A DNA stretch of 64,000 bases from an uncultured Holophagales bacterium (GCA_963842525.1 CAWJGT010000007.1:1-64000); one strand, 5' to 3'. Numbered from the stretch's first letter, positions 10,763 to 24,240 are shown. The notes: generated from the letters alone by a model not told the origin. Translations and numbers: made by a program.

Positions 10763-11953
10763 ATGCTGGCCGACCGCATTCCCGAAATCCAGGCCGCCCT
10801 GGCCGACGCCGGAGTCGACGGGTGGTTCTTCGCCATCTTCCAGAACAACGACCCCATCGGGCTCGACCTCCTCGGGCTGTCCGGCGGGAACAAGCTGGTC
10901 ACCCGCCGCTGCTACTACCTGATCCCGCGGGAAGGTGAGCCGCGCAAGTTGGTCCACGCTCTGGAGCCGGCCATGCTCGACGACCTGCCGGGCGGCAAGT
11001 CGGTCTATCTGACCTGGGAGAAGCACCGCGAGGAATTCGCCAACCTGGTGCAGGGCTTCCCGCGCCTGGCCGCCCAGTACAGCCCGAACAACGAGCTGCC
11101 CAGCGTCTCGCGCCTCGACGCCGGACATGCCGAGCTGCTGCGGCAGGCCGGCGTGGAGCTGGTCTCGGCGGCCGACCTCGCCCAGCGCTTCGCCGCCACC
11201 TGGAGCGGCGAGCAGCTCGCCACCCACCGGCGCGCCCAGGTGCACCTCCACCGCATCGTCCTCGAAGCGTTTCACAGGGTTTCGGACGCACTGCGCAACG
11301 GCGACCAGATCGACGAATACACGGTCCAGCGTTTCATCCTGGACGCCTTCAACCACGCCGGCCTGTGGGCCGAGTCAGACCCGATCGTCGGGGTGAACGC
11401 GCACGCCGCCGATCCGCACTATCAGCCCGGGCCGGACCACACGTCCCCGATCCGCCCGGGCGACTTCCTGCTCATCGACCTATGGGCCAAGGAGAAGCAG
11501 CCGGGCAGCATCTACGGCGACATCACCTGGGTCGGCGTCTGCGCCGCCGCGCCAACCGACAAGCAGCAGGAGGTGTTCGCGGCCGTTATCGGGGGGCGCG
11601 ACGCCGCCTGGGAGCTGATCCGCAGCCGCTATCCCCGGCAGCCAATCCAGGGCTACGAGGTGGACGATGCCGCCCGCGGCTTCATCCGCCAGGCCGGCTA
11701 CGGCGACTTCTTCATCCACCGCACCGGCCATTCGATCGGCACCTCGGACCATGGCCAGGGCGCGAACATGGACAACCTGGAGACCCATGACACGCGGCAG
11801 CTCCTGTCCATGACCGGCTTCTCGATCGAGCCGGGGATCTATCTGCCGGGCGATTTCGGCGTGCGTAGCGAGATCAACGTAGCCCTCACCCGCGAGGCCG
11901 CCGAGATCACCGGCGCCGAGCCCCAGCGCGAGCTGCTGCGGCTGCTGGCATAG
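10763..11953 (+). CDS. M24 family (Xaa-Pro) metallopeptidase
   Basis: DPHY, LLIDLW, GDITW, HRTGHSIG, FSIEPGIY, GVRSE. Confidence 0.9.
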   Translation: MLADRIPEIQAALADAGVDGWFFAIFQNNDPIGLDLLGLSGGNKLVTRRCYYLIPREGEPRKLVHALEPAMLDDLPGGKSVYLTWEKHREEFANLVQGFPRLAAQYSPNNELPSVSRLDAGHAELLRQAGVELVSAADLAQRFAATWSGEQLATHRRAQVHLHRIVLEAFHRVSDALRNGDQIDEYTVQRFILDAFNHAGLWAESDPIVGVNAHAADPHYQPGPDHTSPIRPGDFLLIDLWAKEKQPGSIYGDITWVGVCAAAPTDKQQEVFAAVIGGRDAAWELIRSRYPRQPIQGYEVDDAARGFIRQAGYGDFFIHRTGHSIGTSDHGQGANMDNLETHDTRQLLSMTGFSIEPGIYLPGDFGVRSEINVALTREAAEITGAEPQRELLRLLA

Positions 11954-11976
11954 ACCGCTCGTCCGGCGCGGAGAAG

Positions 11977-12119
11977 CCCTCACCCCCTGGCCCCCCTCTC
12001 CCATCCGCACTCCCTTCCCCCGGGAGAGGGGGGAATACACGATCGGGAAGCTCCGGGTGGGGGACTCCCCTCTCCCGGCGGGTGTGAGTGCGGATGGGAG
12101 AGGGGCCGGGGGTGAGGGG
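11977..12119. repeat. REP/BIME-like long inverted repeat (CCCTCACCCC...GGGGTGAGGG family)
   Basis: Arms CCCTCACCCCC-GGCCCCCCTCTCCCATCCGCACTC and GAGTGCGGATGGGAGAGGGGCCGGGGGTGAGGG; near-identical copy at 60278-60425. Confidence 0.85.
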
Positions 12120-12148
12120 CCCCACAGCCGTTTGTTAATCTCGTCCGT

Positions 12149-13096
12149 ATGTCCGACGTCCCCGACCTGCGCGAGCAGCACCCCGCCGGCGAGTCCTGGC
12201 GGGCGGATGCGCTCGCCCGGAGCGGCCACGGCCGGCTCCTCGAAGAGCTGCGCGAGCCGCAGCAGGACTTCGACGAGGAGCGCGCCCTGGAGCTCTGCGC
12301 CGAGATCTGCCGCAACCTGCTCGGGGACTTCGCGCCGGCCCTGCTCCTCCTGCCGCCGCTGGAGCGCCAGCGCGTCCAGACGCTCCTGGCCTATACCCAT
12401 ACCCTGTTCGACTTCGCGCGCCAGCGCGGCGTCGAAGGGGAGAAGCTCGCCCAGATCAACCGCTGGGAATTCACCCTGGAGGCGGCCCTCTCCGGCCAGC
12501 CCGTCGGGCAACCCATCTTCGTGCGCATGGCGCGCGAGCAGAAGCGCCAAGCCTGGCCCGCCGAGGCCCTGGACGACCTCGCCGCCTGCGCACGCCGTAG
12601 GGCGACGCGCCCGCGGCCGGCCACTCCGGAGGAGGCGGAGGCCGGCGCCGAGCGCCTGGCCCGGTCCGTGGCCGCCGCCCTCCTGGGCCAGGAGCCGCCC
12701 GCCGAGGTCAGCGGTCTCCTGGGAACCCTGGTCCGCATCCGCACCCTGCAGATGCTGGGCGCCGAGATCGACGGCCGCCGCCTCCCTCTGGCCATGAGCG
12801 ATCTGCCGGACGACTGGACCGCCGACCCACAGGGCCGGCCGGATCCACAGCTCCTCTTCGAGGCGGTGCGGAAGGAGTGTGCCCGTCTCCGTCCACGTCT
12901 CCTGCGAGCCCCCCGCGGCCTCGTCGAGCTGCCGCCCGGCTACCGCCGCGCCGCCGTCTTCTGCCTCATGGCCTCCGTCCGCCTCCTCACCGGCATCGAG
13001 GACAGCGACACCGGCCTGCTGCGGACGCCGCCGCAGCTCGGGCTCCTGTCGAGGCTGGGGTTTCTGATGCGGGCGCGGTGGTTGCGGGGGGTGTGA
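12149..13096 (+). CDS. squalene/phytoene synthase-like protein (degenerate motifs)
   Basis: ALELCAEICR..FAPALLLLP...LLAY..TLFD N-terminal pattern and GRRLPL..L late motif; no clear DxxxD motifs. Confidence 0.55.
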   Translation: MSDVPDLREQHPAGESWRADALARSGHGRLLEELREPQQDFDEERALELCAEICRNLLGDFAPALLLLPPLERQRVQTLLAYTHTLFDFARQRGVEGEKLAQINRWEFTLEAALSGQPVGQPIFVRMAREQKRQAWPAEALDDLAACARRRATRPRPATPEEAEAGAERLARSVAAALLGQEPPAEVSGLLGTLVRIRTLQMLGAEIDGRRLPLAMSDLPDDWTADPQGRPDPQLLFEAVRKECARLRPRLLRAPRGLVELPPGYRRAAVFCLMASVRLLTGIEDSDTGLLRTPPQLGLLSRLGFLMRARWLRGV

Positions 13097-13100
13097 GGCC

Positions 13101-13577
13101 TCACCCCCGCCCAATTTCCTCAACCAGTTCGGCGCTGACCAACACGCGGATTCCGTGGCGCAGCAAGGGGGTGAAATGGCGACGGTTTTCGGTGGTCACA
13201 AGCCGCGCACCGGCCTGTCGTGCGATCTCGGCGATGTGCGCATCGTAGATCCTGCCGCCGGTCGTGCCCTCCCCTGCCGCGGATACCAGAAACTCCTCTT
13301 GCAGCTCCGCCGGAAGGCCATGGATTGAAAAGCGCGGGAAGATCTCCTCCCGCAGGAACTGCAGGGCGACTTGCGGATCGAGGCGGTATTCTTCCGGCAG
13401 GCGCGTCGTCACCGAATAGAACTCGAGACAACAGTGCCAAGCAGTCAGCGGGCGCTCGATGCGGCCATCCGCGACCGCATCCATCAGAAGGAGGGGGTCC
13501 TGCGATTTACTGCCTAAATCGATGACACCGGCGACGAGCACACTGGTATCGAAGAAGGCGCCCCTCAGCCCGGCCAC
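13101..13577 (-). CDS. vapC: PIN-domain (VapC-like) toxin
   Basis: FFDTSVLVA, EFYSV.TR, GGRIYDAHIA, TENRRHF. Confidence 0.88.
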   Translation of the reverse strand: MAGLRGAFFDTSVLVAGVIDLGSKSQDPLLLMDAVADGRIERPLTAWHCCLEFYSVTTRLPEEYRLDPQVALQFLREEIFPRFSIHGLPAELQEEFLVSAAGEGTTGGRIYDAHIAEIARQAGARLVTTENRRHFTPLLRHGIRVLVSAELVEEIGRG

Positions 13578-13822
13578 CGGTCCCGCTCCTCTTCGATCAA
13601 CCTTGCCACGTCGATCTCGGCGCGCACCCCCTCCGCAACCCGGGGCCGGGCAATCAGGCGCTCACCGCGCCGCACGAGCTCAGGACCCGCCACCGCCCGG
13701 ACAAGGCGAATGGCAAAGCCCTCAATGATCATCTCAAGCTCTGAACCGGCGGTAAGCCCCAGCCGCTTGCGCACCTCTGCAGGGATGATTACGCGTCCTG
13801 CCTTGTCAATGGTTGTCGTCAT
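13565..13822 (-). CDS. AbrB/MazE/SpoVT antitoxin
   Basis: TTIDKAGRVIIPAEVRKRLGL..G; overlaps the toxin start. Confidence 0.9.
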   Translation of the reverse strand: MTTTIDKAGRVIIPAEVRKRLGLTAGSELEMIIEGFAIRLVRAVAGPELVRRGERLIARPRVAEGVRAEIDVARLIEEERDRWPG

Positions 13823-14018
13823 GGCTGTAGCGTACCATGCCTTTGCCACTCGTATGCCATATCACACGGCACAGGCCGCGGGCTGACGCTTCGGGCATTC
13901 GCACCCAAGAAACCCAAGCCGCTCGCAGGTTTTGCGCTCGCAGCGGGGCGGAGCCGTCGATTTCGCTTCGAACGCTTCGTCCGCGTCCCGCCTCTTCCGG
14001 TCGGGGGTAGGGCGACGG

Positions 14019-14681
14019 CTACCCCGGCTCCACGAAGATCTTCGACGCCGCCCGGAACCCCAGGCTCAGAGGCTCGCCGGTGCCGAGGTGGAGCTCGACG
14101 GCGTCGGCCGCTTCGTCGCGGCCTTCGACGTAGAGCTCGCTGCCGGGCTTCAGGCCCCGCCTCTCCAGGAGCTGCAGGAACTCGCGGCTCTGGTCGGCCA
14201 CCCGGGCCACCCGCACCGGCTTGGCGAGGTCGCAGGTCAGCAGGCTCGGCAGGTCCGGGACCTCGATCACTCCGTGGACGTCCGGGATGGGATCGCCGTG
14301 CGGATCGACCGAGGGCGACCCCAGCATCTCATCCATCCGCTGGATCAGCCGGTCGGAGGCCGCGTGCTCCAGCTCCTCGGCCTCGGAGTGTACCTCGCTC
14401 CAGTCCATCCCCATGATCCTGACCAGGAACAGCTCGATCAGCCGGTGCCGCCGCAGCACGTGCGCCGCGAGCTGCTGGCCCGGCGGGGTCAGGCGTACGC
14501 CGCTGTACGGCTCGTAGGTGAGCAGGCCGCTGTCCGCCAGGGTCTTGACCATGGCCGTCACCGTCCCCGGCGCCACTTTGAGCGCCGCGCCGATCTGGCC
14601 CATGGAGACGAGCCGGTCCGGATCGCTCTGCTGCTCCAGGAGGATGCACTTGAGGTAGTCCTCGACCGTGCTCGTCGGCAT
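14019..14681 (-). CDS. mntR: DtxR/MntR family metal-dependent repressor with FeoA-like C-terminal domain
   Basis: TVEDYLKCI, TVTAMVK.L, LRRHRLIELFL, HSEAEELEH, DPHGDPIP. Confidence 0.92.
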   Translation of the reverse strand: MPTSTVEDYLKCILLEQQSDPDRLVSMGQIGAALKVAPGTVTAMVKTLADSGLLTYEPYSGVRLTPPGQQLAAHVLRRHRLIELFLVRIMGMDWSEVHSEAEELEHAASDRLIQRMDEMLGSPSVDPHGDPIPDVHGVIEVPDLPSLLTCDLAKPVRVARVADQSREFLQLLERRGLKPGSELYVEGRDEAADAVELHLGTGEPLSLGFRAASKIFVEPG

Positions 14682-14716
14682 GAAGGAGAGCCTACCACTC
14701 TTCGGCTGTCCCCCTC

Positions 14717-14762
14717 TTGACATTTCGCCAGCTCGGGACAATAATTTTGATATGCCAAAAAA
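14717..14762 (+). promoter_or_regulatory. sigma70 promoter and MntR-like operator overlapping the troA start
   Basis: TTGACA(14717)-17-AATAAT(14740); imperfect palindrome TTTTGATATGCCAAAA spans the ATG at 14752. Confidence 0.65.
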
Positions 14763-15684
14763 CCGCCGGCTCCTCGTCCCGCTCCTTCTCCTCCCTTTCG
14801 CGCTGCTTGGTTGCGGCGGCGAGAAGGGCTCCACGCCGCGCCGCGAGGGACCTCTCCGGGTGGTCGCCACGACCAGCATCATCGCGGACACGACCCGGCG
14901 GATCGCGGGTGAGCACGCCCAGATCGAGGCGCTGATGGGCCCGGGGGTCGACCCCCACCTCTACAAGGCGAGCGAGAGCGATGTCCGCCGGCTGTCCGAG
15001 GCGGACCTGGTCCTCTACAACGGGCTCCATCTGGAAGGGAAGATGGGCGACATCCTGACCAAGATGGCGCGCAGCCGGCCGGTGGCGGCGGTCTCCGAGG
15101 ACATCCCGCAGGGCCAGCTCCGCGAGCCGCCCGAGTTCGCCGGCCAGTACGACCCGCACGTCTGGTTCGACGTCTCCCTGTGGGCGACGACCCTGCAGCC
15201 GATCGCGCGCGAGCTGGCGGCCCTCGACCCGGAGCACGCGGAGACGTTCAAGGCCAACGCCGCGGCCCTGGAGAAGGAGCTGAACGAGCTCGACGCCTGG
15301 GTGAAGCAGCAGATCGCGACGATCCCGAAGGCGCAGCGGGTCCTGGTCACCGCCCACGACGCCTTCGGCTATTTCGGCCGGCGTTACGACATGGACGTCG
15401 TCGGCCTTCAGGGGATCAGCACCCTCTCCGAGGCCGGGCTCAAGGACGTCGACCGGGTGGTGGGGATCGTCATCGACCGCGGGGTCAAGGCGATCTTCGT
15501 GGAGTCGAGCGTGCCCCGGCGCTCCATCGAGGCGGTGCAGGCGGCCGTACGGTCACGCGGCAAGGAGGTGGCCATCGGCGGCCAGCTCTTCTCCGACTCT
15601 CTCGGCGCCGCGAACGGCCCCGCGGGGACCTATCCCGGGATGGTCCGTACCAATGTGACCACCATCGTCGACGCGCTCAAGTAG
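14752..15684 (+). CDS. troA: Mn/Zn/Fe ABC transporter substrate-binding lipoprotein
   Basis: LLGC lipobox, GVDPHLY, NGLHLE, DPHVWFD, TAHDAFGYF, LFSDSLG. Confidence 0.93.
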   Translation: MPKNRRLLVPLLLLPFALLGCGGEKGSTPRREGPLRVVATTSIIADTTRRIAGEHAQIEALMGPGVDPHLYKASESDVRRLSEADLVLYNGLHLEGKMGDILTKMARSRPVAAVSEDIPQGQLREPPEFAGQYDPHVWFDVSLWATTLQPIARELAALDPEHAETFKANAAALEKELNELDAWVKQQIATIPKAQRVLVTAHDAFGYFGRRYDMDVVGLQGISTLSEAGLKDVDRVVGIVIDRGVKAIFVESSVPRRSIEAVQAAVRSRGKEVAIGGQLFSDSLGAANGPAGTYPGMVRTNVTTIVDALK

Positions 15685-15690
15685 GAGGAC

Positions 15691-16554
15691 ATGATGACGA
15701 GCGTTCCCCTGAGTCAGGTCCCCCTGTCGTCCCCATCCCCCTCCTCCCCCTCGTCACCGCGTGACGAGTCCCGGCCTGTTGCGGTCGCCCGGACGCCGGC
15801 GATCGAGGTGCATGACCTGACCGTCGCCTACCGCACCCAGCCCGTGCTCTGGGACGTGGACCTCCAATTCCCGGAGGGGCAGCTCATCGCCATCGTCGGC
15901 CCCAACGGCGCCGGCAAGAGCACGCTGCTCAAGGCGATGCTGGGCCTGGTCCGACCCGTCACCGGCTGGGTGCAGATCTTCGGCGAGCCCTACGTCCGCC
16001 GCCGCTCCTGGGTGGGGTACGTGCCGCAGCGCGAGAGCGTCGACTGGGACTTTCCGACCAGCGCCCTCGACGTGGTGACCATGGGCCTCTATGGCCGGAT
16101 CGGCTGGTTCCGCCGGCCGTCCCGCCACCACCGCGAGACGGCCCTCGCCTGCCTGGACAAGGTCGGCATGAAGGACCTCGCCCACCGCCAGATCAGCCAG
16201 CTTTCGGGCGGCCAGCAGCAGCGGGTGTTCCTCGCCCGCGCCCTGGCCCAGGACGCGCGGCTCTACCTGATGGACGAGCCGTTCGCCGGCGTCGACGCCA
16301 CCACCGAGCGGGCCATCCTCACCCTGCTCAAGGAGCTGCGCAGCAGCGGACGCACCGTGGTGGCGGTCCACCACGACCTGCAGACCGTCGCCGAGTACTT
16401 CGACTACGTCGTGCTGCTCAACATGCGGCTGGTGGCGGCCGGGCCGGTGGCCACCACGTTCACCGCCGAGAACCTCCAGCGCACCTACGGCGGCCGGTTG
16501 ACCGTGCTCGCCCAGGCCGCCGATGCGCTGCTCCAGAAGCGGCCGGGGAGCTGA
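15691..16554 (+). CDS. troB: metal ABC transporter ATP-binding protein
   Basis: [47 protein letters not shown]. Confidence 0.93.
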
Positions 16555-16562
16555 GGCTCGCG

Positions 16563-17837
16563 ATGGAGCTGAGCTTCACCGCCCGCAACGTCCTGCTCGG
16601 CGCCACGATGCTCGGCGCTCTGGGCGGCATGATCGGCAGCTTCGCCCTGCTGCGCCGCCAGAGCCTGCTCGGCGACGCCCTGGCCCACGCCGCCCTGCCG
16701 GGCGTCTGCCTGGCCTTCCTGCTGACCGGGACCAAATCGCCCCTGCCGCTCTTCCTCGGCGCACTGGTGGCCGGCCTGCTCGGCTCGCTCCTGATCCTCG
16801 CCACGGTGCGCTGGAGCCGGATCAAGGAGGACTCGGCCATCGGCATCATCCTTTCGGTCTTCTTCGGCGTCGGCATCGTCCTGCTCACCTATATCCAGAA
16901 GCTGCCGGCGGGCAACCAGAGCGGCCTCGACAAATACCTGTTCGGCCAGGCGGCCACGCTGGTGGAGGACGACCTGAAGGTCATGGCCGTCCTGGGAGCC
17001 CTCGTGCTCGCCGCCGTGCTGGCCTTCTACAAGGAGCTCAAGCTCCTCTCCTTCGATCCGGGCTTCGGCGCCAGCCTTGGCCTGCCGATGCGCGGCCTCG
17101 AGGTCCTGCTCACCTTGCTCCTGGTGGTGGTCGTGGTGGTGGGGCTCCAGACCGTGGGCGTGGTGCTCATCGTGGCGACCCTGATCACCCCGGCCGCCGC
17201 GGCGCGCCAGTGGACCGACCGTCTGGGCGCGATGGTCCTGCTCTCGGCGACCATCGGTGCTCTGGCCGGCGTGGCGGGCTCCCTCGCCAGCGCCATGGTG
17301 CCGCGCCTGCCCACCGGCCCGGTCATCGTGGTCGCCTCCTCCGGCGTGCTGATGGTCTCGCTGCTCTTCGCGCCGCGGCGTGGGCTGGTGCAAGAGATCC
17401 TGCGCGAGCGGCAGGTCGCCAACCGCATCCGGCGCGAAAACCTGCTTCGCGACATCTATCTCCAAGGCGAGCGGGGGAAGGGGTGGGAGGAGCTCGTCTC
17501 CTGGCCCCTTCTGATGGGTCTGCGCGGCCTGAGTGGACGCGAGCTCGAGAAGACCGCCCGCGCTCTCGCCGCCGCCAGCCTGGTCGAGCGCCGGGGCGAC
17601 GACCTGCGGCTCACCCCCGCGGGGCTCGAGGAGGCCGAGGCCGTGGTGCGCAAGCACCGTCTCTGGGAGGTCTACCTGACCCGCCGGCTCGAGCTGCCGA
17701 GCGACCACGTCCACCGCGACGCCGAGGCCATGGAGCACGCCCTCTCCGAGCAGGCGGTGGCGGACCTCGAAGAGGCGCTGGGCTTCCCTACGATGGACCC
17801 GCACGGGCGGGCGATCCCAGCGCGGAGGACGGCATGA
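16563..17837 (+). CDS. troC: metal ABC permease fused to a C-terminal DtxR-like domain
   Basis: LLGDALAHAALPG permease motif; C-terminus RKHRLWEVYL...HRDAEAMEH...DPHGRAIP. Confidence 0.9.
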   Translation: MELSFTARNVLLGATMLGALGGMIGSFALLRRQSLLGDALAHAALPGVCLAFLLTGTKSPLPLFLGALVAGLLGSLLILATVRWSRIKEDSAIGIILSVFFGVGIVLLTYIQKLPAGNQSGLDKYLFGQAATLVEDDLKVMAVLGALVLAAVLAFYKELKLLSFDPGFGASLGLPMRGLEVLLTLLLVVVVVVGLQTVGVVLIVATLITPAAAARQWTDRLGAMVLLSATIGALAGVAGSLASAMVPRLPTGPVIVVASSGVLMVSLLFAPRRGLVQEILRERQVANRIRRENLLRDIYLQGERGKGWEELVSWPLLMGLRGLSGRELEKTARALAAASLVERRGDDLRLTPAGLEEAEAVVRKHRLWEVYLTRRLELPSDHVHRDAEAMEHALSEQAVADLEEALGFPTMDPHGRAIPARRTA

Positions 17838-18940
17838 ACCCGACCCTCGTCATCCTCCTGACCGGTAGCTTCGTGGCCGCGGCCTGCGCCCTTGTGGGCT
17901 CCTTTCTGGTCCTGCGCAAGATGGCGCTCCTGGGCGACGCCATCAGCCATGCCGTGCTCCCGGGGATCGCCATCGCCTTCCTGCTCACCGGCACCCGGGC
18001 GGTCCTCCCCATGGTCCTCGGGGCCGGCGTCCTCGGCGTCATCACGGTGCTGCTCGTCGAGATGTTCAACCGCAGCCGCCGCCTGCGCGAGGACGCCTCG
18101 ATCGGCGTCGTCTTCCCGGCCCTGTTCTCGCTCGGCGTGATCCTGATCAGCCGCTACGCCGCGCAGGTGGATTTGGACCTCGACTGCGTCCTCTACGGCG
18201 AGATCGCCTACGCCCCCTGGGACACGCTGATCCTGGGCGGCCGCGAGCTCGGCCCCAAGGCCCTCTGGGTCACCGGCGGCGTGCTGCTCCTCGTCCTCAC
18301 CCTGGTGCTGATCCTCTACAAGGAGCTTGCGCTCTCGACCTTCGACGCCGGGCTCGCCGCCACGCTCGGCTTCTCGCCGGTCCTCCTCCACTACCTGCTG
18401 ATGAGCGCCGTCTCGGTCACGGTGGTGGGCTCCTTCGAGTCGGTCGGGGCGATCCTGGTGGTGGCGATGCTGATCGTGCCGCCGGCCACCGCCTATCTGT
18501 TGACCGAGCGCCTCGACCGGATGCTCATCCTGGCCGTGCTTCTGGGCGTCGTCTCGGCCTGCGGCGGCTACGGCCTCGCCCGCTGGTGGGACGCCTCGAT
18601 CGCCGGCGCCATGGCCACCGTGGCCGGCATGCTCTTCCTCGGCGCGCTCCTCTTCTCGCCCGGGCACGGCCTGCTGGCCTGGGTGCTGATCCTGCGGCGG
18701 ATGAGAGGCCGCCTCTCGGGGCAGCTCCTCCTCCTGCACCTCCAGAAAGGGGAATCGGTCGTGCCGGTGGCGACCCTGGAGCGGCGTTTCGGCTGGAGCC
18801 CGCTGCGCCTGCGCAAAGTCCTCGCCACCCTCCTCCGCGCCGGCTGGGTCGAAATGGAAGGCGACGGCCTCCGCCTGACCGCCAGCGGCGCCCAGGTGCT
18901 GGAAACGTCAGGCCGGGCCCAACTCGCGCATCCGTTGTAG
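17834..18940 (+). CDS. troD: metal ABC permease with short C-terminal winged-helix-like extension
   Basis: ATG 17834 overlaps the troC stop; LLGDAISHAVLPG, DLDCVLYGEI, FESVGAILV; tail ...GWVEMEGDGLRLTASG. Confidence 0.9.
   Translation: MNPTLVILLTGSFVAAACALVGSFLVLRKMALLGDAISHAVLPGIAIAFLLTGTRAVLPMVLGAGVLGVITVLLVEMFNRSRRLREDASIGVVFPALFSLGVILISRYAAQVDLDLDCVLYGEIAYAPWDTLILGGRELGPKALWVTGGVLLLVLTLVLILYKELALSTFDAGLAATLGFSPVLLHYLLMSAVSVTVVGSFESVGAILVVAMLIVPPATAYLLTERLDRMLILAVLLGVVSACGGYGLARWWDASIAGAMATVAGMLFLGALLFSPGHGLLAWVLILRRMRGRLSGQLLLLHLQKGESVVPVATLERRFGWSPLRLRKVLATLLRAGWVEMEGDGLRLTASGAQVLETSGRAQLAHPL
18238..18937 (+). repeat. ~700-bp direct repeat, copy 1 (troD 3' part)
   Basis: Colinear with 23523-24222 at offset 5285, with scattered substitutions. 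Confidence 0.92.
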
Positions 18941-19104
18941 ACCGGAAAGTGGGGCGCGCCGCGCGGAGAGATCGATCTTGTGATCAATTTTTTGACCTTC
19001 GTCATGTTTGCCGTGGCGACGGCATTGATACTTGCGCGCTTGCGGTGCCTGTCCACTGATCTCCGCGCGTAACGACCTATCGGAGAAAACTGTAACGTTG
19101 CGGC

Positions 19105-21009
19105 TCATTTTTCGGAGCCGGTGAGCTCGCGGCAGGTTTCATACTCAGCCTTGGAGAGTCGGCGGTCCTTCTCGTTCAGCTTAAGCGCCTCGTGCGCCAG
19201 GTCGGCGGCACGCTTCATGTCCCCACGCTTGGAGGCTTCGACAGCCTGGGCACAGTAGGATGAAGAATCGGCTCTGCCGCGACCCTTCCCACTGGTGAGC
19301 TTCCGGCAGGTGTCATACTCGGATTCCGACAAGCGGCGGTCCTGCTGGTGCAAGTCGAGCGCCTTGCGCGCCAGGTCGGCGGCGCCCTTTGGGTCCCCGC
19401 GCCTGGCGGCTTCGACAGCCTGGGCACAGTAGGATGAGGAATCGTTCTCAGCCCCACCCGTCCCGGCGGCGAGCTTCCGGCAGGTGTCATGCTCGGATTC
19501 CGACAAGCGACCATCCTGCTGGTGCAAGTCGAGCGCCTTGCGCGCCAGGTCGGCGGCGCCTTTTACGTCCCCGCGTCTGGCGGCTTCGACAGCCTGGGCA
19601 CAGTAGGATGAGGAATCGTTCTCAGCCCCACCCGTCCCGGCGGCGAGCTTCCGGCAGGTGTCATGCTCGGATTCCGACAAGCGACCATCCTGCTGGTGCA
19701 AGTCGAGCGCCTTGCGCGCCAGGTCGGCGGCGCCTTTTACGTCCCCGCGCCTGGCGGCTTCGACAGCCTGGGCACAGTAGGATGAGGAAACGTTCTCAGC
19801 CCCACCCGTCCCGGCGGCGAGCTTCCGGCAAGTGTCATGCTCGGATTCCGACAAGCGGCCATCCTGCCGGTGCAAGTCGAGCGCCTTCCGCGCCAGATCG
19901 GCGGCGCCCTTGATGTCTCCGCGCCTGGCGGCTTCGACAGCCTGGGCACAGTAGGATGAGGAAACGTTCTCAGCCCCACCCGTCCCGGCGGCGAGCTTCC
20001 GGCAAGTGTCATGCTCGGATTCCGACAAGCGGCCATCCTGCTGGTGCAAGTCGAGCGCCTTGCGCGCCAGGTCGGCGGCGCCTTTTACGTCCCCACGCCT
20101 GGCGGCTTCGACAGCCTGGGCACAGTAGGATGAGGAAACGTTCTCAGCCCCACCCGTCCCAGCGGCGAGCTTCCGGCAGGAGTCATACTCGGATTCCGAC
20201 AAGCGGCGGTCCTGCTGGTGCAAGTCGAGCGCCTTCTGCGCCAGGTCGGCAGCCTCCAGCCGGCTTCCGCGCTGGAAGGTTTCGATGGCGAGCGTGCAGT
20301 AGTACTTCGAGTCGTAGACAGCCGGCTCCGGGGCTGGTGGCGGGGATTGCCGCTCCTCCAAGGGTTCTTCGAGGGGAGCCAGCACCTGAAGGGCTTCCCG
20401 GCGGATCTCCGTCGCCTCTTGCGAGTCCAGTTGATCACGTTGCGGCGGAGCTGATCCTGGGATCGAGATCTGGTCGAGGGATTCGAGCAAGATCGGTTCC
20501 CAGAGTCCCCTTCGGGAGGTCACAAGGAGCTGCCCTTCCACCACTTTGTAGGTCACTTCGTCCCCTCGCACCTCGATCTTGTACAGCGTCCCTTTCGGCG
20601 TCTGGAGGGTCCACTCGGTCTCTACTTTCAACGCCTTGCGAATGCGCCCGATCCCTTTGACGATCGCACCTCCGATGCGCACGAAGATACTCGGATTGCG
20701 GATCTCGATCTCGCTTTCCGGCTCGAGGATCACTTTCCACCTGCCCCTCGCAAACGTGATCACAGCCCTGGTACCGGACGCCGTGATAATCCGGTCGCCC
20801 TTCTTCAGCCCCATTCCGAGCCGGGTGCTTGTTGGGCGCCCATCGCGCTCGATCCGCACGAGTTGGTTTTCCGGGGCTGCGGCGAGCCGATCATCTGTGA
20901 TGACCCCTTGCAGCCTGCCCGTGACGCATCCCATGCTGGTAAACGCGAGAGCCACCACGAGGAGCCGTGCGGCAGATGGGAGACAGAACCTGATTTGAAG
21001 TTGCCTCAT
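19105..21009 (-). CDS. FecR-domain putative lipoprotein with seven 58-aa tandem two-Cys helical repeats
   Basis: Signal ending TSMGC; LKKGDRIIT..GTRAVI.F, LEPESEI, KGTLY.IEV, VVEG.L.V FecR-like motifs; repeat YCAQAVEAARRGD..GAADLARKALDLHQQD.RLSESE.DTCRKL. Confidence 0.75.
   Translation of the reverse strand: MRQLQIRFCLPSAARLLVVALAFTSMGCVTGRLQGVITDDRLAAAPENQLVRIERDGRPTSTRLGMGLKKGDRIITASGTRAVITFARGRWKVILEPESEIEIRNPSIFVRIGGAIVKGIGRIRKALKVETEWTLQTPKGTLYKIEVRGDEVTYKVVEGQLLVTSRRGLWEPILLESLDQISIPGSAPPQRDQLDSQEATEIRREALQVLAPLEEPLEERQSPPPAPEPAVYDSKYYCTLAIETFQRGSRLEAADLAQKALDLHQQDRRLSESEYDSCRKLAAGTGGAENVSSSYCAQAVEAARRGDVKGAADLARKALDLHQQDGRLSESEHDTCRKLAAGTGGAENVSSSYCAQAVEAARRGDIKGAADLARKALDLHRQDGRLSESEHDTCRKLAAGTGGAENVSSSYCAQAVEAARRGDVKGAADLARKALDLHQQDGRLSESEHDTCRKLAAGTGGAENDSSSYCAQAVEAARRGDVKGAADLARKALDLHQQDGRLSESEHDTCRKLAAGTGGAENDSSSYCAQAVEAARRGDPKGAADLARKALDLHQQDRRLSESEYDTCRKLTSGKGRGRADSSSYCAQAVEASKRGDMKRAADLAHEALKLNEKDRRLSKAEYETCRELTGSEK
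19125..20310 (-). repeat. 174-bp coding tandem repeat, 7 units
   Basis: Marker CACAGTAGGA at 19251, 19425, 19599, 19773, 19947, 20121, and a divergent unit near 20295. Confidence 0.95.
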
Positions 21010-23396
21010 GGCCAGAACCGCCTTTGAAGTCGCCCAACGCCTAGGTAGGTCAGCAGGAATGCTCCGAGATGGAACACTGTGTTCAACAGGAGCTGTGACG
21101 TGACATACAGGATAACAGCGCCCGCGAGATACATCAACACGAATCCTGCGAGCGCACTCTGCCGCAGGAGAGGGTCAGGGTTTCGATATCGAAGGTACGC
21201 GCCCGCCATGGCCATGAGGAGGGTTAGAACGAACTGCCAGGGTCCAGAGGCCGGCCGAATGGTGATCCCCGACAAAAGGGTATTGATGGCATCCGCTTGA
21301 AGCTCCATGCTGTATCGGCGCTCGGGAATGAGACCGCGGAGGACGAAACGTTGCCAGCGCGCTGTTTGCTCGCCGACGACCACGATCTTTCCGCGCACCA
21401 ACGCAGCGGTTGCCTCTGTGAGGGGAGCCGCGAGATCCTCGTACCAAAGTCTCTGTAGGCGCAGCGGCTTGGCGGAGCTCAGAGCGATGATGCGATGGTA
21501 TACTCTGTCGCCGGGGTTAATGGCCGGACAATTCGGTTGGTCGCTATGGGTCTCCTCGTCATCCGAGAAGCCGCCCAAGTCATGAATCCGGGAGGGCCTC
21601 GCTCGTTGGAACGCTAGGACGGCGGCCAAAGCTAGGGCCGGGACTCTGGGAGACAGCGTAGAATTCCCTTTCTGGGTCACGAGTGGGACGATTGGACTCG
21701 GGGCCAAACTTTGGCCTAGACAAGCCACCCCCCAGCTAGTGATGGCTGGCCTCAGTATCGGAGAGAGCCCCGGGGCCTCGCCCTCGAGGCGGCCCACCGC
21801 GACCACCACCGCGGTGTTGCGTGAAGCCGCGCGGTTCATCGCCGCTGCGAGCTCGTTGTCGGCTTGATCGTCAGGCTCGGAGAATTCCACATCGAAGACG
21901 ACGACAGTGGCGCCCGCTGCGGAAAGCCGGTCCAGAAGCACCGCATGGCGGCGCCTCCAACTTTTATCAATCGTTTGGCGTGTCGCGACCAGAGTGATCT
22001 GGTCACTGAATTCCTCCCTGGAGAAGCCGTTGCCCAGCCAGCTCGAGTACAACTGCAGCTGCAGCTCCCGATCGAGTTGACCGAGACCTTTAAATGAGGA
22101 GACGAAGAATAGGAAAAAGGCCATCGCCATCGCCAGGACCAGGGAGAGGTTGCGGAACCGGATCCGTGCACGGGAGCGCTTAAGCTCTGCAATCTCTACA
22201 TGCCGTTCTGCATCATCTTCCAGGAGGACCAAGTTGGCCTCGCGGGTCCTGTTCGCGGCCTCGACGCCGGCGAGCTGCCGCGGCGAGTAGGGTATGTCTT
22301 TAAGTGGCTTGCCAGTCAAGAGCTCGAACAGGACCCCTTCCGGCGCGCGGGTGAAGAGCACCGGGGTGGCGACTACGCCGTATTCGGGGAATTCCGCATT
22401 GAGCCGGTTGCGCGCATGGCTGATCGCCGGCTCCAACCGGCCTTGTTTCGGCCCCTTGAAGAGGCACATATAGAACTCGCGGGCGAAGCGGATGGCAGCC
22501 GTATCCAGGATCCGGAACTGCATGGCGATGACGGCGGGAATCCCGCACCTGACCAGCTCGGGGGCCAGCCCGAGCAACGGCTGGCTTAACGAGACCTCGG
22601 CCCCCTGGCACGAGTTGAGGACGATGAGCTTCATCGTCGGATGATTTCGGAAGAGGCTTCCGAATCTCTCATGGCCGACGAAGTCAAAGTCTTCCGCGGT
22701 CCGATTGAGAATCAGGAAGGGTTGCTCGGACTGGAAGCCGCCGTGGCCGATGAAATGGAGAATATGAAAGCGCTGCTCGAGAAGAGCGTCGCTCACGCGA
22801 TCGAGGGTCACGATGCCGTCGAGCCAGGTGAGCTCGATGAGCTTCTGCCGCTCGAGGTTGCCCACTGCCTCCTCCAGGAATTTGCGCTCAGCGGCGGTGT
22901 TGAGGTTCTTGACGGCGGGAATGACGACCAACATCCGCACCGGGAATGAGGTCTCCAGCGAGCGGATGGGCTGTGGTACTTCGAGGTACCGGACGATCGC
23001 GGTCGCCTCGTTCGTGGCCAGGAACTCCCGGTCCTGGCGGGAGTAGAGAAGCTCCCAGGGCAGATGGGCCATGGAAGGCGCCTCGATGCGGAGCCGGACC
23101 CGCAGGCCCTTATCGCGCTCTGCATTGCAGGCTCCCCGCGAGCGTTCGAAAAGTCTGCCGATGTCACGGTTTTCCGCGTCGAAAACGCCTGCGTAGAGCA
23201 GAGAGCCGAGCTTGACGAGCAGCTCCTTGCCGATCTTGTTGCTGCCCAGACGGGTTTCGAATTCGTGGAGCGGCCCGGACTCCGGATCCAGGGCCGTCCG
23301 GTCTTGGGCCTCCCCCTGCGCTGGGCAGGCAGCCCGCAGGGGATAATGGTCCCCCACCCGGTTGTCGATCCAGAGGTCGAAATCAAGGTAACGCAA
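21006..23396 (-). CDS. CHAT (caspase-like protease) - TM - CHASE2 - 3 TM membrane protein
   Basis: LPWELL, HILHFIGHG, VLNSCQG, AVIAMQF, AIRFAREFY (CHAT with His/Cys dyad); then HAVLLDRL..AGA.VVVFDVEFS and GKIVVVG...ELQADAINTLL (CHASE2). TTG start at 23396 after a GAGGT RBS. Confidence 0.85.
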   Translation of the reverse strand: MRYLDFDLWIDNRVGDHYPLRAACPAQGEAQDRTALDPESGPLHEFETRLGSNKIGKELLVKLGSLLYAGVFDAENRDIGRLFERSRGACNAERDKGLRVRLRIEAPSMAHLPWELLYSRQDREFLATNEATAIVRYLEVPQPIRSLETSFPVRMLVVIPAVKNLNTAAERKFLEEAVGNLERQKLIELTWLDGIVTLDRVSDALLEQRFHILHFIGHGGFQSEQPFLILNRTAEDFDFVGHERFGSLFRNHPTMKLIVLNSCQGAEVSLSQPLLGLAPELVRCGIPAVIAMQFRILDTAAIRFAREFYMCLFKGPKQGRLEPAISHARNRLNAEFPEYGVVATPVLFTRAPEGVLFELLTGKPLKDIPYSPRQLAGVEAANRTREANLVLLEDDAERHVEIAELKRSRARIRFRNLSLVLAMAMAFFLFFVSSFKGLGQLDRELQLQLYSSWLGNGFSREEFSDQITLVATRQTIDKSWRRRHAVLLDRLSAAGATVVVFDVEFSEPDDQADNELAAAMNRAASRNTAVVVAVGRLEGEAPGLSPILRPAITSWGVACLGQSLAPSPIVPLVTQKGNSTLSPRVPALALAAVLAFQRARPSRIHDLGGFSDDEETHSDQPNCPAINPGDRVYHRIIALSSAKPLRLQRLWYEDLAAPLTEATAALVRGKIVVVGEQTARWQRFVLRGLIPERRYSMELQADAINTLLSGITIRPASGPWQFVLTLLMAMAGAYLRYRNPDPLLRQSALAGFVLMYLAGAVILYVTSQLLLNTVFHLGAFLLTYLGVGRLQRRFWP

Positions 23397-23481
23397 GGCG
23401 TACCTCAAATCTGTCCATGCGCGCTGCCGCCGTTTCGGCTTGTCAGGGCGCCAGTAAAGCCTGAGTAACGAAGAGTATAAA

Positions 23482-23522
23482 CTATCTCGGCCGCGCCACA
23501 ACCCCTTTCAGACGGTCCCAAC
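23482..23522 (-). pseudogene. remnant of a DoxX gene 3' end
   Basis: Reads WDRLKGVVARPR-stop; the intact DoxX gene at 24298 ends [17 protein letters not shown]. Confidence 0.6.
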
Positions 23523-24240
23523 CGGCCGCGAGGTCGGCCCCAAGGCCCTCTGGGTCACCGGCGGCGTGCTGCTGCTCGTCCTCGCCCTGGTGCTGATCCT
23601 CTACAAGGAGCTTGCGCTCTCGACCTTTGACGCGGGGCTCGCCGCCACGCTCGGCTTCTCGCCGGTCCTCCTCCATTACCTGCTGATGAGCGCCGTCTCG
23701 GTCACGGTGGTGGGCTCCTTCGAGTCGGTCGGGGCGATCCTGGTGGCGGCGATGCTGATCGTGCCGCCGGCCACCGCCTATCTGCTGACCGAGCGCCTCG
23801 ACCGGATGCTCATCCTGGCGGTGCTCCTGGGCGTTGTCTCGGCTTGCGGTGGCTATGGCCTCGCCCGCTGGTGGGACGCCTCGATCGCCGGCGCCATGGC
23901 CACCGTGGCAGGCATGCTCTTCTTCGGCGCGCTCCTCTTCTCGCCCGGGCACGGCCTGCTGGCCTGGCTGCTGATCCTGCGGCGGATGAGAGGCCGTCTC
24001 TCGGGGCAGCTCCTCCTCCTGCATCTCCAGAAAGGGGGATCGGTCGTGCCGGTGGCGACCCTGGAGCGGCGCTTCGGCTGGAGCCCGCTGCGCCTGCGCA
24101 GGGTCCTCTCCAGCCTCCTCCGCGCCGGCTGGATCGAAATGGAAGGCGACGGCCTTCGCCTGACCGCCAGCGGCGCCCAGGTGCTGGAGTCCACCGGCCG
24201 CGTCCAACTCGCGCACCCGTTGGGATCCGCAATAACTTGA
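23523..24240 (+). pseudogene. troD: 5'-truncated second copy of troD (direct repeat copy 2)
   Basis: Near-identical to 18238-18937; lacks the first ~135 codons and has a different C-terminus (HPLGSAIT). Confidence 0.88.

Follow-up and report, generated by a model that had tools for sequence, protein, structure and literature searches.

A horizontally acquired gene pair for a predicted CHAT-CHASE2 receptor protease and its FecR-like partner in an uncultured Holophagales bacterium

A 4.6-kb insert in a 64,000-nucleotide stretch of DNA from an uncultured Holophagales bacterium (GCA_963842525.1 CAWJGT010000007.1:1-64000; the whole stretch is called the window here) carries two overlapping genes, which we refer to as genes A and B. 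Gene A encodes a CHAT domain, one transmembrane (TM) helix, a CHASE2 domain and three further TM helices, and gene B encodes an exported lipoprotein with a FecR-like beta domain. The catalytic dyad of the CHAT domain is intact, the pair is strongly conserved and is fused in some relatives, other relatives bring a Pepco toxin gene or a TIR domain together with the receptor, and both genes are foreign, acquired horizontally from a distant bacterial lineage. We lean modestly towards reading genes A and B as a two-component transmembrane receptor-protease, in which a cue from outside the cell would lead to CHAT cleavage of cytoplasmic targets. The pair probably serves as a stress or cell-death switch that responds to the outside, and here it has no toxin.

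Gene A encodes a predicted receptor protease

Both genes and all of their features given below lie on the minus strand. Gene A (796 residues; 21006..23396) was defined from its open reading frame (ORF) and start, Pfam matches, homologues and an AlphaFold2 model. Its frame opens at 23501, and translation probably begins with the TTG at 23396, which has GAGG 6 nt before it and falls at an M-x-Y-x-[DN]-F-D motif where the homologues begin too. An earlier, sequence-only reading of the window had placed the start at this same position, whose codon is TTG and not ATG; the position is supported by the GAGG and the homologue motif. The ATGA overlap of genes A and B at 21006-21009 that it reported was confirmed in the sequence.

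Pfam assigned both domains well above their cut-offs, with 77.7 bits for CHAT (PF12770; cut-off 24, E 1.3e-21) and 62 bits for CHASE2 (PF05226; cut-off 26.3), the latter scoring 64.9 bits in a genome search. The CHAT caspase-fold domain belongs to a predicted cytoplasmic N-terminal module of approximately residues 1-366 (22299..23396; Pfam and Foldseek). The GHG and NSC motifs that had been described as intact are present as FIGHGGF and LNSCQG, and their catalytic residues, His218 (codon 22743..22745) and Cys263 (codon 22608..22610), are invariant in 30 of 30 aligned homologues with 30-77% identity. The proposed order of the remaining parts also holds, with Pfam, hydropathy and the AlphaFold model in agreement: TM1 (residues 417-435; 22092..22148; hydropathy 2.34, Lys/Arg bias, helix in the model), CHASE2 (residues 436-718; 21243..22091; Pfam and an alpha/beta fold in the model, with a periplasmic location expected from the topology) and TM2-TM4 (residues 719-794; 21015..21242; helices in the model and hydropathy).

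The AlphaFold2 model, built on the 30-homologue alignment, had a mean predicted local distance difference test score (pLDDT) of 86.8 and a predicted template modelling score (pTM) of 0.71. On its N-terminal side a beta/alpha module is followed by the CHAT core and then by long helices at 372-391 and 395-434, the second of which leads without a break out of the cytoplasmic linker and into TM1. Residues 443-709 (approximately) form an alpha/beta domain, and the C-terminal helices span 718-738, 742-767 and 773-794. Foldseek returned 42 matches at E<=0.001 for the CHAT part, the best being the SAVED-CHAT filament 8tl0 (E 2.9e-8, 22-24% identity); Csx29 of Craspase (8eey) matched with E 3.7e-7, and separases, DdvA, MALT1, gingipain and caspase-9 were further matches. 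As modelled, the CHAT domain of gene A has a caspase/separase-type fold with an intact catalytic dyad, and peptidase activity is predicted. We rejected gene A as an orthologue of HetF, since it scored 50.7 bits against a cut-off of 1200 on the corresponding family model (NCBIfam NF045509).

From the charge bias around TM1 and the fused five-TM relatives described below, we infer a cytoplasmic CHAT and a periplasmic CHASE2. There are six Lys or Arg residues among the 15 preceding TM1 and two after it, and gene A has no N-terminal signal peptide ahead of its 416-residue N-terminal part, which together put CHAT inside and CHASE2 outside. The same orientation is favored because a TIR domain sits between CHAT and TM1 in the homologue P0047 (1002 residues; CHAT-TIR-TM-CHASE2-3TM), on the cytoplasmic side of that receptor, because a Ser/Thr kinase holds the same N-terminal place in the genome's only other CHASE2 protein, and because the fused relatives need five hydrophobic segments to have FecR-PASTA outside. 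The placement of CHAT and CHASE2 on opposite sides of the membrane, on which the sequence-only reading depended, is therefore backed by charge bias, the model, the TIR and kinase proteins and the five-TM fusions. Its assumption that CHASE2 outputs normally stand after the TM helices fits less well, since the N-terminal output of gene A is not unique: the kinase protein, found in a profile search of the genome, has the same layout (Ser/Thr kinase-TM-CHASE2-3TM).

On contig C34 of the same genome (415404-421285; locus L178, 3905-9785), this kinase-CHASE2 gene is directly followed by a gene for a signal-peptide-bearing TPR(x7)-CHAT protein. The CHASE2/CHAT association thus recurs there in trans, with an exported protease. 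Our FecR-like hidden Markov model (HMM; see below) did not match this TPR-CHAT protein, although its N-terminus looks beta-rich.

Gene B encodes an exported lipoprotein with a FecR-like domain

Gene B (634 residues; 19105..21009; ORF and the close homologues P0123 and P0124) has a start that overlaps the stop of gene A in the ATGA. Residues 1-28 (20926..21009), read from the sequence, form a signal peptide that ends in ...LAFTSMG-C28, where Cys28 is the lipobox cysteine; it is retained in 11 of 14 aligned partners. The partner had been called an exported protein, and the signal peptide and Cys28 bear this out.

Pfam FecR (PF04773) gave no direct match to gene B at E<=0.1. We therefore relied on a FecR-like HMM whose 12 seeds were partner domains taken from related loci and from fused proteins, with the window protein excluded. 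Nine of these 12 seeds themselves matched Pfam FecR at 26.1-36.1 bits (cut-off 24), and P0011 (23.4) and L013 (23.8) fell just below. The HMM matched gene B residues 28-205 over positions 1-178 of 180 (E 2.8e-45, 154 bits). In the AlphaFold2 model of gene B (pLDDT 82.8, pTM 0.38), residues 31-193 form an all-beta domain with pLDDT >90, whose fold matches the cell-surface signalling domain at the C-terminus of PupR, a FecR-family regulator (6ovk_R; E 7.2e-6, root-mean-square deviation 2.5 A over 129 columns, template modelling score on the target 0.52), and also a putative anti-sigma factor (4m0h_B). Through its homologues and predicted fold, residues 29-205 of gene B (20395..20925) can be assigned as a FecR-like domain. 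A role for gene B as a FecR-type anti-sigma factor was rejected; it is a lipoprotein without a cytoplasmic domain, and the flanks contain no sigma factor or TonB receptor gene.

After the beta domain, a Pro-rich linker leads into seven 58-residue three-helix units (19108..20313; DNA repeat, sequence and model) with two cysteines each, paired from 238/278 through 586/626. The underlying DNA is a 174-nt tandem unit with 93% matches in 6-7 near-identical copies. The closest homologues, P0123 and P0124, have 2-3 copies of the 58-residue unit, so the array in gene B has expanded recently, and the ligand-binding arm seems to expand and contract quickly. Pfam, a fold search and protein atlas scores (<=0.80) gave only weak TPR-like matches for these repeats, and sub-threshold Pfam names such as RSLD_CPSF6, DUF6435 and DUF1771 were rejected as repeat-driven. 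The original description of gene B as a FecR repeat lipoprotein can thus be kept as to the lipoprotein, and as to FecR by way of homologues and fold without a direct Pfam match, but the repeats are three-helix units and not FecR.

The pair is conserved and in some relatives fused

A protein search listed 120 homologues of gene A, and the figures from this search cover the matches listed. CHAT and CHASE2 were both present in 98 of the 120. Judging by their source names, hosts include Thermoanaerobaculia (67% identity), Competibacteraceae, Gemmatimonadota, Desulfosarcina and Pyrinomonadaceae; the closest (P0004-P0009) had 57-77% identity. Genome and metagenome scans yielded 14 loci with a full-length relative of gene A (L001-L006, L008-L011, L013, L014, L096 and L097), spanning at least five phyla. 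A metagenome scan with the gene A protein alone found nothing, and an alignment-based scan with very general patterns returned mostly CHAT-only proteins and just two additional full-length loci.

Because L010 ends at a contig edge, its downstream gene could not be judged, which leaves 13 loci. In all 13, our custom HMM found a FecR-like domain directly downstream of the receptor, fused in frame in the case of L097. Eight of the 13 had supplied training sequences for the HMM, so the independent cases are L002, L009, L014, L096 and L097. Of 11 downstream ORFs, nine matched Pfam FecR at E<=0.01, seven of them at or above the cut-off. Five of the 11 downstream partners carry five to seven PASTA domains, and two carry TPR (Pfam). 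The CHAT-CHASE2/FecR-like pair is strongly conserved, as the sequence-only reading required of a functional pair.

Besides L097, five proteins (P0010, P0011, P0012, P0034 and P0052) are fusions with the order CHAT-TM-CHASE2-3TM-TM5-FecR-PASTA, and Pfam FecR was matched in four of these five. The fusion junction keeps the signal peptide and lipobox cysteine of the partner as a fifth hydrophobic segment. Since the signal peptide becomes a fifth TM helix, the FecR domain comes to lie on the CHASE2 side. Gene fusion is classic evidence for joint function, and the fused forms thus indicate that receptor and partner act jointly, on the same membrane side.

Linked toxins and other neighbors in related loci

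Pepco is a latent pore toxin that is activated when a linked protease removes its C-terminal tail (Evans et al., bioRxiv 10.1101/2025.11.14.688446). A Pepco gene (PF24393, 63-80 bits) lies directly upstream of CHAT-CHASE2 in L001, L003 (Competibacter type), L004 and L006, and a local HMM found one upstream in L096 too, bringing the total to 5 of 14 loci. In these relatives, the adjacent Pepco is almost certainly the target of the protease, which would place the family with protease-effector "conflict" or cell-death modules. The remark in the sequence-only reading that no substrate gene is evident remains true of the window, where the insert consists of genes A and B and no linked effector was found; it does not extend to the family, given the upstream Pepco in 5 of 14 loci and the TIR domain fused in P0047.

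The Pepco proteins of L001 (6641-6988), L003 (6490-6993), L004 (6577-6909) and L006 (6542-6991) end 2-4 residues past a conserved ...KF(T/V)L(C/K)R. In the Streptomyces Pepco that has been studied, cleavage after Ile97 of 117 residues removes a far longer tail; in the four loci, the basic residue near the end may mark a different cleavage site for the CHAT proteases.

Other neighbors of the pair include SIR2_2, a Ham1-like protein and a Ser/Thr kinase (L010), Endonuclease_NS and a C14 caspase (L011), and a C25-like peptidase and a metallophosphoesterase (L014). In a Desulfopila locus (L006), the trio of Pepco, CHAT-CHASE2 and FecR-PASTA is followed by two Peptidase_C14 caspase genes (11217-14929), one of which is fused to Amidase_2 (N-acetylmuramoyl-L-alanine amidase), and a PG_binding_1 protein neighbors the pair in L005. 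These neighbors of the pair fit conflict systems. The CHAT domain of gene A matched 22 places in the 9.95-Mb genome and up to 21 in relatives, so that the lineage is rich in CHAT domains.

Genes A and B are a foreign insert

The insert (18938..23522, 4585 bp), delimited by GC content, GC content at third codon positions (GC3) and flanking repeats, contains genes A and B only. Its GC content is 0.625, and GC3 is 0.75-0.76 in genes A and B compared with 0.90-0.95 in neighboring host genes. On either side is a 700-bp direct repeat on the plus strand. The left copy (18238..18937) belongs to an intact ABC-3 (Mn/Zn-type) permease gene, of which it covers the 3' two-thirds, and the right copy (23523..24222) repeats the 3' part of this gene, truncated at its 5' end.

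The two repeats are identical at 665 of 700 bases (95%). Of the 35 mismatches, 21 are at third codon positions, and codon differences are synonymous in 19 cases and non-synonymous in 13. Both copies are equally far from a same-genus orthologue (83.4% and 83.5%). The repeat copies look like two diverged functional alleles, which would be expected if circular foreign DNA carrying an orthologous permease fragment had integrated by a single crossover, and this is what the insertion looks like. No recombinase gene was found in 18938-23522. A promoter and terminator scan of the insert found no promoter-like site, with terminator-like sites at chance level. In two same-genus genomes, similarity extends no further than the stop codon of the permease gene and gives way to a different downstream flank, so no "empty site" could be defined. 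A 199-nt contig of run X1 spans the left junction without mismatch, although X1 may be the source sample and thus not independent support.

Forty relatives, five of them from the same genus, contained no full-length orthologue; their matches were to the CHAT domain alone at <=40% identity. None was found at E<=1e-60 in 400 genomes sampled from the phylum either, and in 400 genomes sampled from L010's phylum the only copy was that of L010 itself. The sparse occurrence among relatives and phylum samples indicates that the family is rare and patchy.

A proposed mechanism and its alternatives

We propose that the gene B lipoprotein, translationally coupled to gene A, acts as a co-sensor. Its variable C-terminal arm, made of Cys-stapled helical repeats here and of PASTA or TPR in relatives, would capture an envelope cue, and its FecR-like domain would work with CHASE2 in the periplasm, presumably by binding it. 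The change would pass inward by way of TM1 and the long helix and reach CHAT, which would be switched on, perhaps by oligomerization, and would then cleave cytoplasmic substrates. Where Pepco is present, it would be the substrate, and its cleavage would give a suicide or abortive response. The copy in the window, which has no linked effector, may act on unlinked substrates or on itself, may be a sensor-protease core awaiting an effector, or may be idle.

As for the cue, the PASTA partners suggest sensing of the state of the cell wall, and the PASTA, LysM-like and amidase themes around the family and around other FecR-CHASE2 pairs would fit cell-wall-derived signals. It is possible, though we regard it as tentative, that the CHAT-CHASE2/FecR family as a whole is a bacterial "death receptor", in which the exported co-sensor reads cell-wall or envelope damage (e.g., from phage attack or lytic enzymes), CHASE2 relays the signal, and the caspase-like protease unleashes Pepco or another effector.

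Several observations weigh against a cell-death role. Pepco is absent from the window and from the 96%-complete genome, and none scored above cut-off in four Acidobacteriota genomes that carry the pair. No obvious effector is nearby in L002, L005, L008 and L013, so cell killing may not be general to the family. The PADLOC v2 defense models include none for the pair as a system; gene A had a weak match to SAVED_CHAT (1.2e-9) confined to the CHAT core, and neither gene B nor a related Pepco was matched. A hybrid histidine kinase gene is downstream of the pair in L001 and L003, which fits a regulatory role, and caspase-CHASE2 proteins with neighboring genes for a sigma factor of the extracytoplasmic function (ECF) type and DUF1822 have been proposed to be activated as autopeptidases (Kaur et al., 2021).

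These last two points also favor a different outcome of the same signal, in which an envelope cue leads to the cleavage of a regulator or division protein and thereby to a change in transcription or growth, by regulatory proteolysis and not cell death. Models would be HetF acting on PatU3 and Craspase acting on Csx30, or an autoproteolytic self-release of the kind that Kaur et al. suggested for EACC2-caspase proteins. HetF shows that an N-terminal CHAT domain in a single-TM membrane protease can have a specific cytoplasmic substrate, and the lack of a linked toxin in the window would also be expected. On the other hand, neither the 4.6-kb insert nor the DNA beside it encodes a sigma factor, DUF1822, TRADD-N or any other regulator, and gene A fails as a HetF member by a wide margin (50.7 bits, where 1200 are needed). 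The Pepco, TIR, SIR2 and nuclease genes of relatives are typical of suicide effectors, and the rare, patchy distribution of the family resembles that of mobile conflict systems. We consider regulatory proteolysis unlikely to be the main role, although it deserves to be weighed.

A poorer explanation is that the cassette is an incomplete or inert import that arrived without its effector and is useless or silent. The foreign insert with its atypical GC3 and no effector, and the absence of full-length orthologues from the 40 relatives and 400 phylum genomes, are what this explanation would predict. It is nevertheless improbable: neither frame is broken over its 796 or 634 codons, the catalytic dyad and the translational coupling are kept, the partner repeats have recently grown to seven units and are still in frame, and effector-less pairs recur in several lineages. 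We disfavor as highly improbable a periplasmic CHAT acting alongside CHASE2 and FecR, to which the exported TPR-CHAT neighbor of the kinase-CHASE2 gene on contig C34 and the periplasmic CHAT domain of DdvA could point, since there is no signal peptide before the 416-residue N-terminal domain, six Lys or Arg residues stand on the N side of TM1, this orientation would place CHASE2 in the cytoplasm, P0047 has its TIR domain on the same side as CHAT, receiver and kinase domains are found fused to related CHAT domains, and the five TM helices of the fused forms put FecR-PASTA outside only if the N-terminus is inside.

Relation to known systems

We compared the receptor-protease pair with published systems as they are described in the available portions of the cited papers. 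Pepco-protease modules have a sensor-fused protease encoded beside a small Pepco, which is also true of 5 of 14 CHAT-CHASE2 loci, but not of the window or its genome, which lack Pepco. The example of Evans et al. is a cytoplasmic Avs4 trypsin-like protease that senses the phage portal protein, whereas here the protease is CHAT and the sensor is an extracytoplasmic CHASE2 with a FecR lipoprotein. The main text of Evans et al. (bioRxiv 10.1101/2025.11.14.688446; figures and supplements were outside our scope) makes no mention of CHASE2 or FecR.

EACC2-caspase proteins have variable C-termini that include CHASE2, and stimulus-induced protease activation has been predicted for them (Kaur, Burroughs, Iyer, Aravind, eLife 2021, PMC8195603). 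Like gene A, they have a constant N-terminal module and a caspase-fold peptidase followed by TM helices and an extracellular CHASE2. Their neighborhoods contain TRADD-N, or an ECF sigma factor with DUF1822, and none of these was found by Pfam in the ORFs flanking genes A and B. A FecR/PASTA partner and Pepco go unmentioned for EACC2-caspase proteins in the available text of that paper (PMC8195603). A metacaspase-CHASE2 protein of Trichodesmium (Asplund-Samuelsson 2012, PMC3501461; Jiang 2010, PMC2853523) shares with gene A the N-terminal caspase fold, one TM helix, CHASE2 and three TM helices, and its protease is likewise predicted to be cytoplasmic. It differs in having Peptidase_C14 instead of CHAT, and it is a single-sequence architecture for which the available text does not discuss a partner gene.

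Pairs of a FecR-domain protein and a CHASE2 sensor have been described as "BiofilmReg" in Burkholderia, with a related operon in P. aeruginosa PAO1 (PMC5192318), as smc02177 with cyaD1 in S. meliloti (PMC5498481), and as CHASE2 cyclase clusters with FecR-domain genes in Campylobacterota (PMC9239204). In each case the gene for a CHASE2 receptor has, as in the window, a neighbor that encodes an exported FecR-domain protein, and the Burkholderia FecR protein also bears a peptidoglycan-binding LysM domain, in parallel to PASTA in the CHAT-CHASE2 family. The outputs of these published pairs are histidine kinases or adenylate cyclases placed after three TM helices, in contrast to the N-terminal protease here.

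Among CHAT proteases, HetF of Anabaena is membrane-anchored, with an N-terminal CHAT domain and a cytoplasmic substrate (PMC8406250; PMC9457339), but has one TM helix and a TPR domain and no CHASE2. The best structural matches of gene A, SAVED-CHAT (8tl0) and Csx29 (8eey), are sensor-gated CHAT proteases of defense systems. Their sensors are cytoplasmic (nucleotide-binding SAVED and RNA-guided Cas7-11, respectively), and their identity to gene A is 13-24%.

Caspase-fold/CHASE2 fusions with the 1+3 TM layout and FecR-CHASE2 gene pairs are therefore already in print. The conserved pair of CHAT-CHASE2 and FecR(-PASTA), its fused forms and the link to Pepco were not found in the literature searched, whose coverage excluded subscription journals and supplements. 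There, CHASE2 with "CHAT domain" returned nothing, and Jiang 2010 was the sole relevant paper for CHASE2 with CHAT. Nothing relevant joined CHASE2 and PASTA, and among the matches listed CHASE2 appeared alongside EACC1 and never with Pepco or Trypco.

To our knowledge, the signals sensed by CHASE2 domains are still largely unknown. The protease-effector defense modules that we met in the literature searched all sense signals inside the cell. By gene order, fusion and topology, the family described here ties a periplasmic FecR-type co-sensor, often with PASTA, to a CHASE2 receptor and a predicted cytoplasmic caspase-like protease, and some of its members add a toxin whose proteolytic activation was just worked out. 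This makes both the CHASE2 ligand and an outside-triggered, caspase-type bacterial suicide directly testable with a two- or three-gene construct. If the death-receptor proposal were true, the family would be the first case of an extracytoplasmic sensor in a protease-effector immune module and would give the long-unexplained CHASE2 domain its first concrete protein partner and signal class. The window itself offers a clean example of the 4.6-kb cassette moving between phyla as an insert.

Genes flanking the insert

Pfam identified the flanking genes as encoding a DtxR-type repressor, a ZnuA/ABC/ABC-3 metal transporter, UbiA, SCO1 and COX1. In 14019-18940 of the window, the DtxR-family metal repressor, which has a FeoA-like domain, is divergent from the operon for ZnuA, an ABC ATPase and the ABC-3 permease. 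The ABC-3 domain occupies only the last ~360 codons of the long ORF at 16523-18940, which is therefore probably more than one gene.

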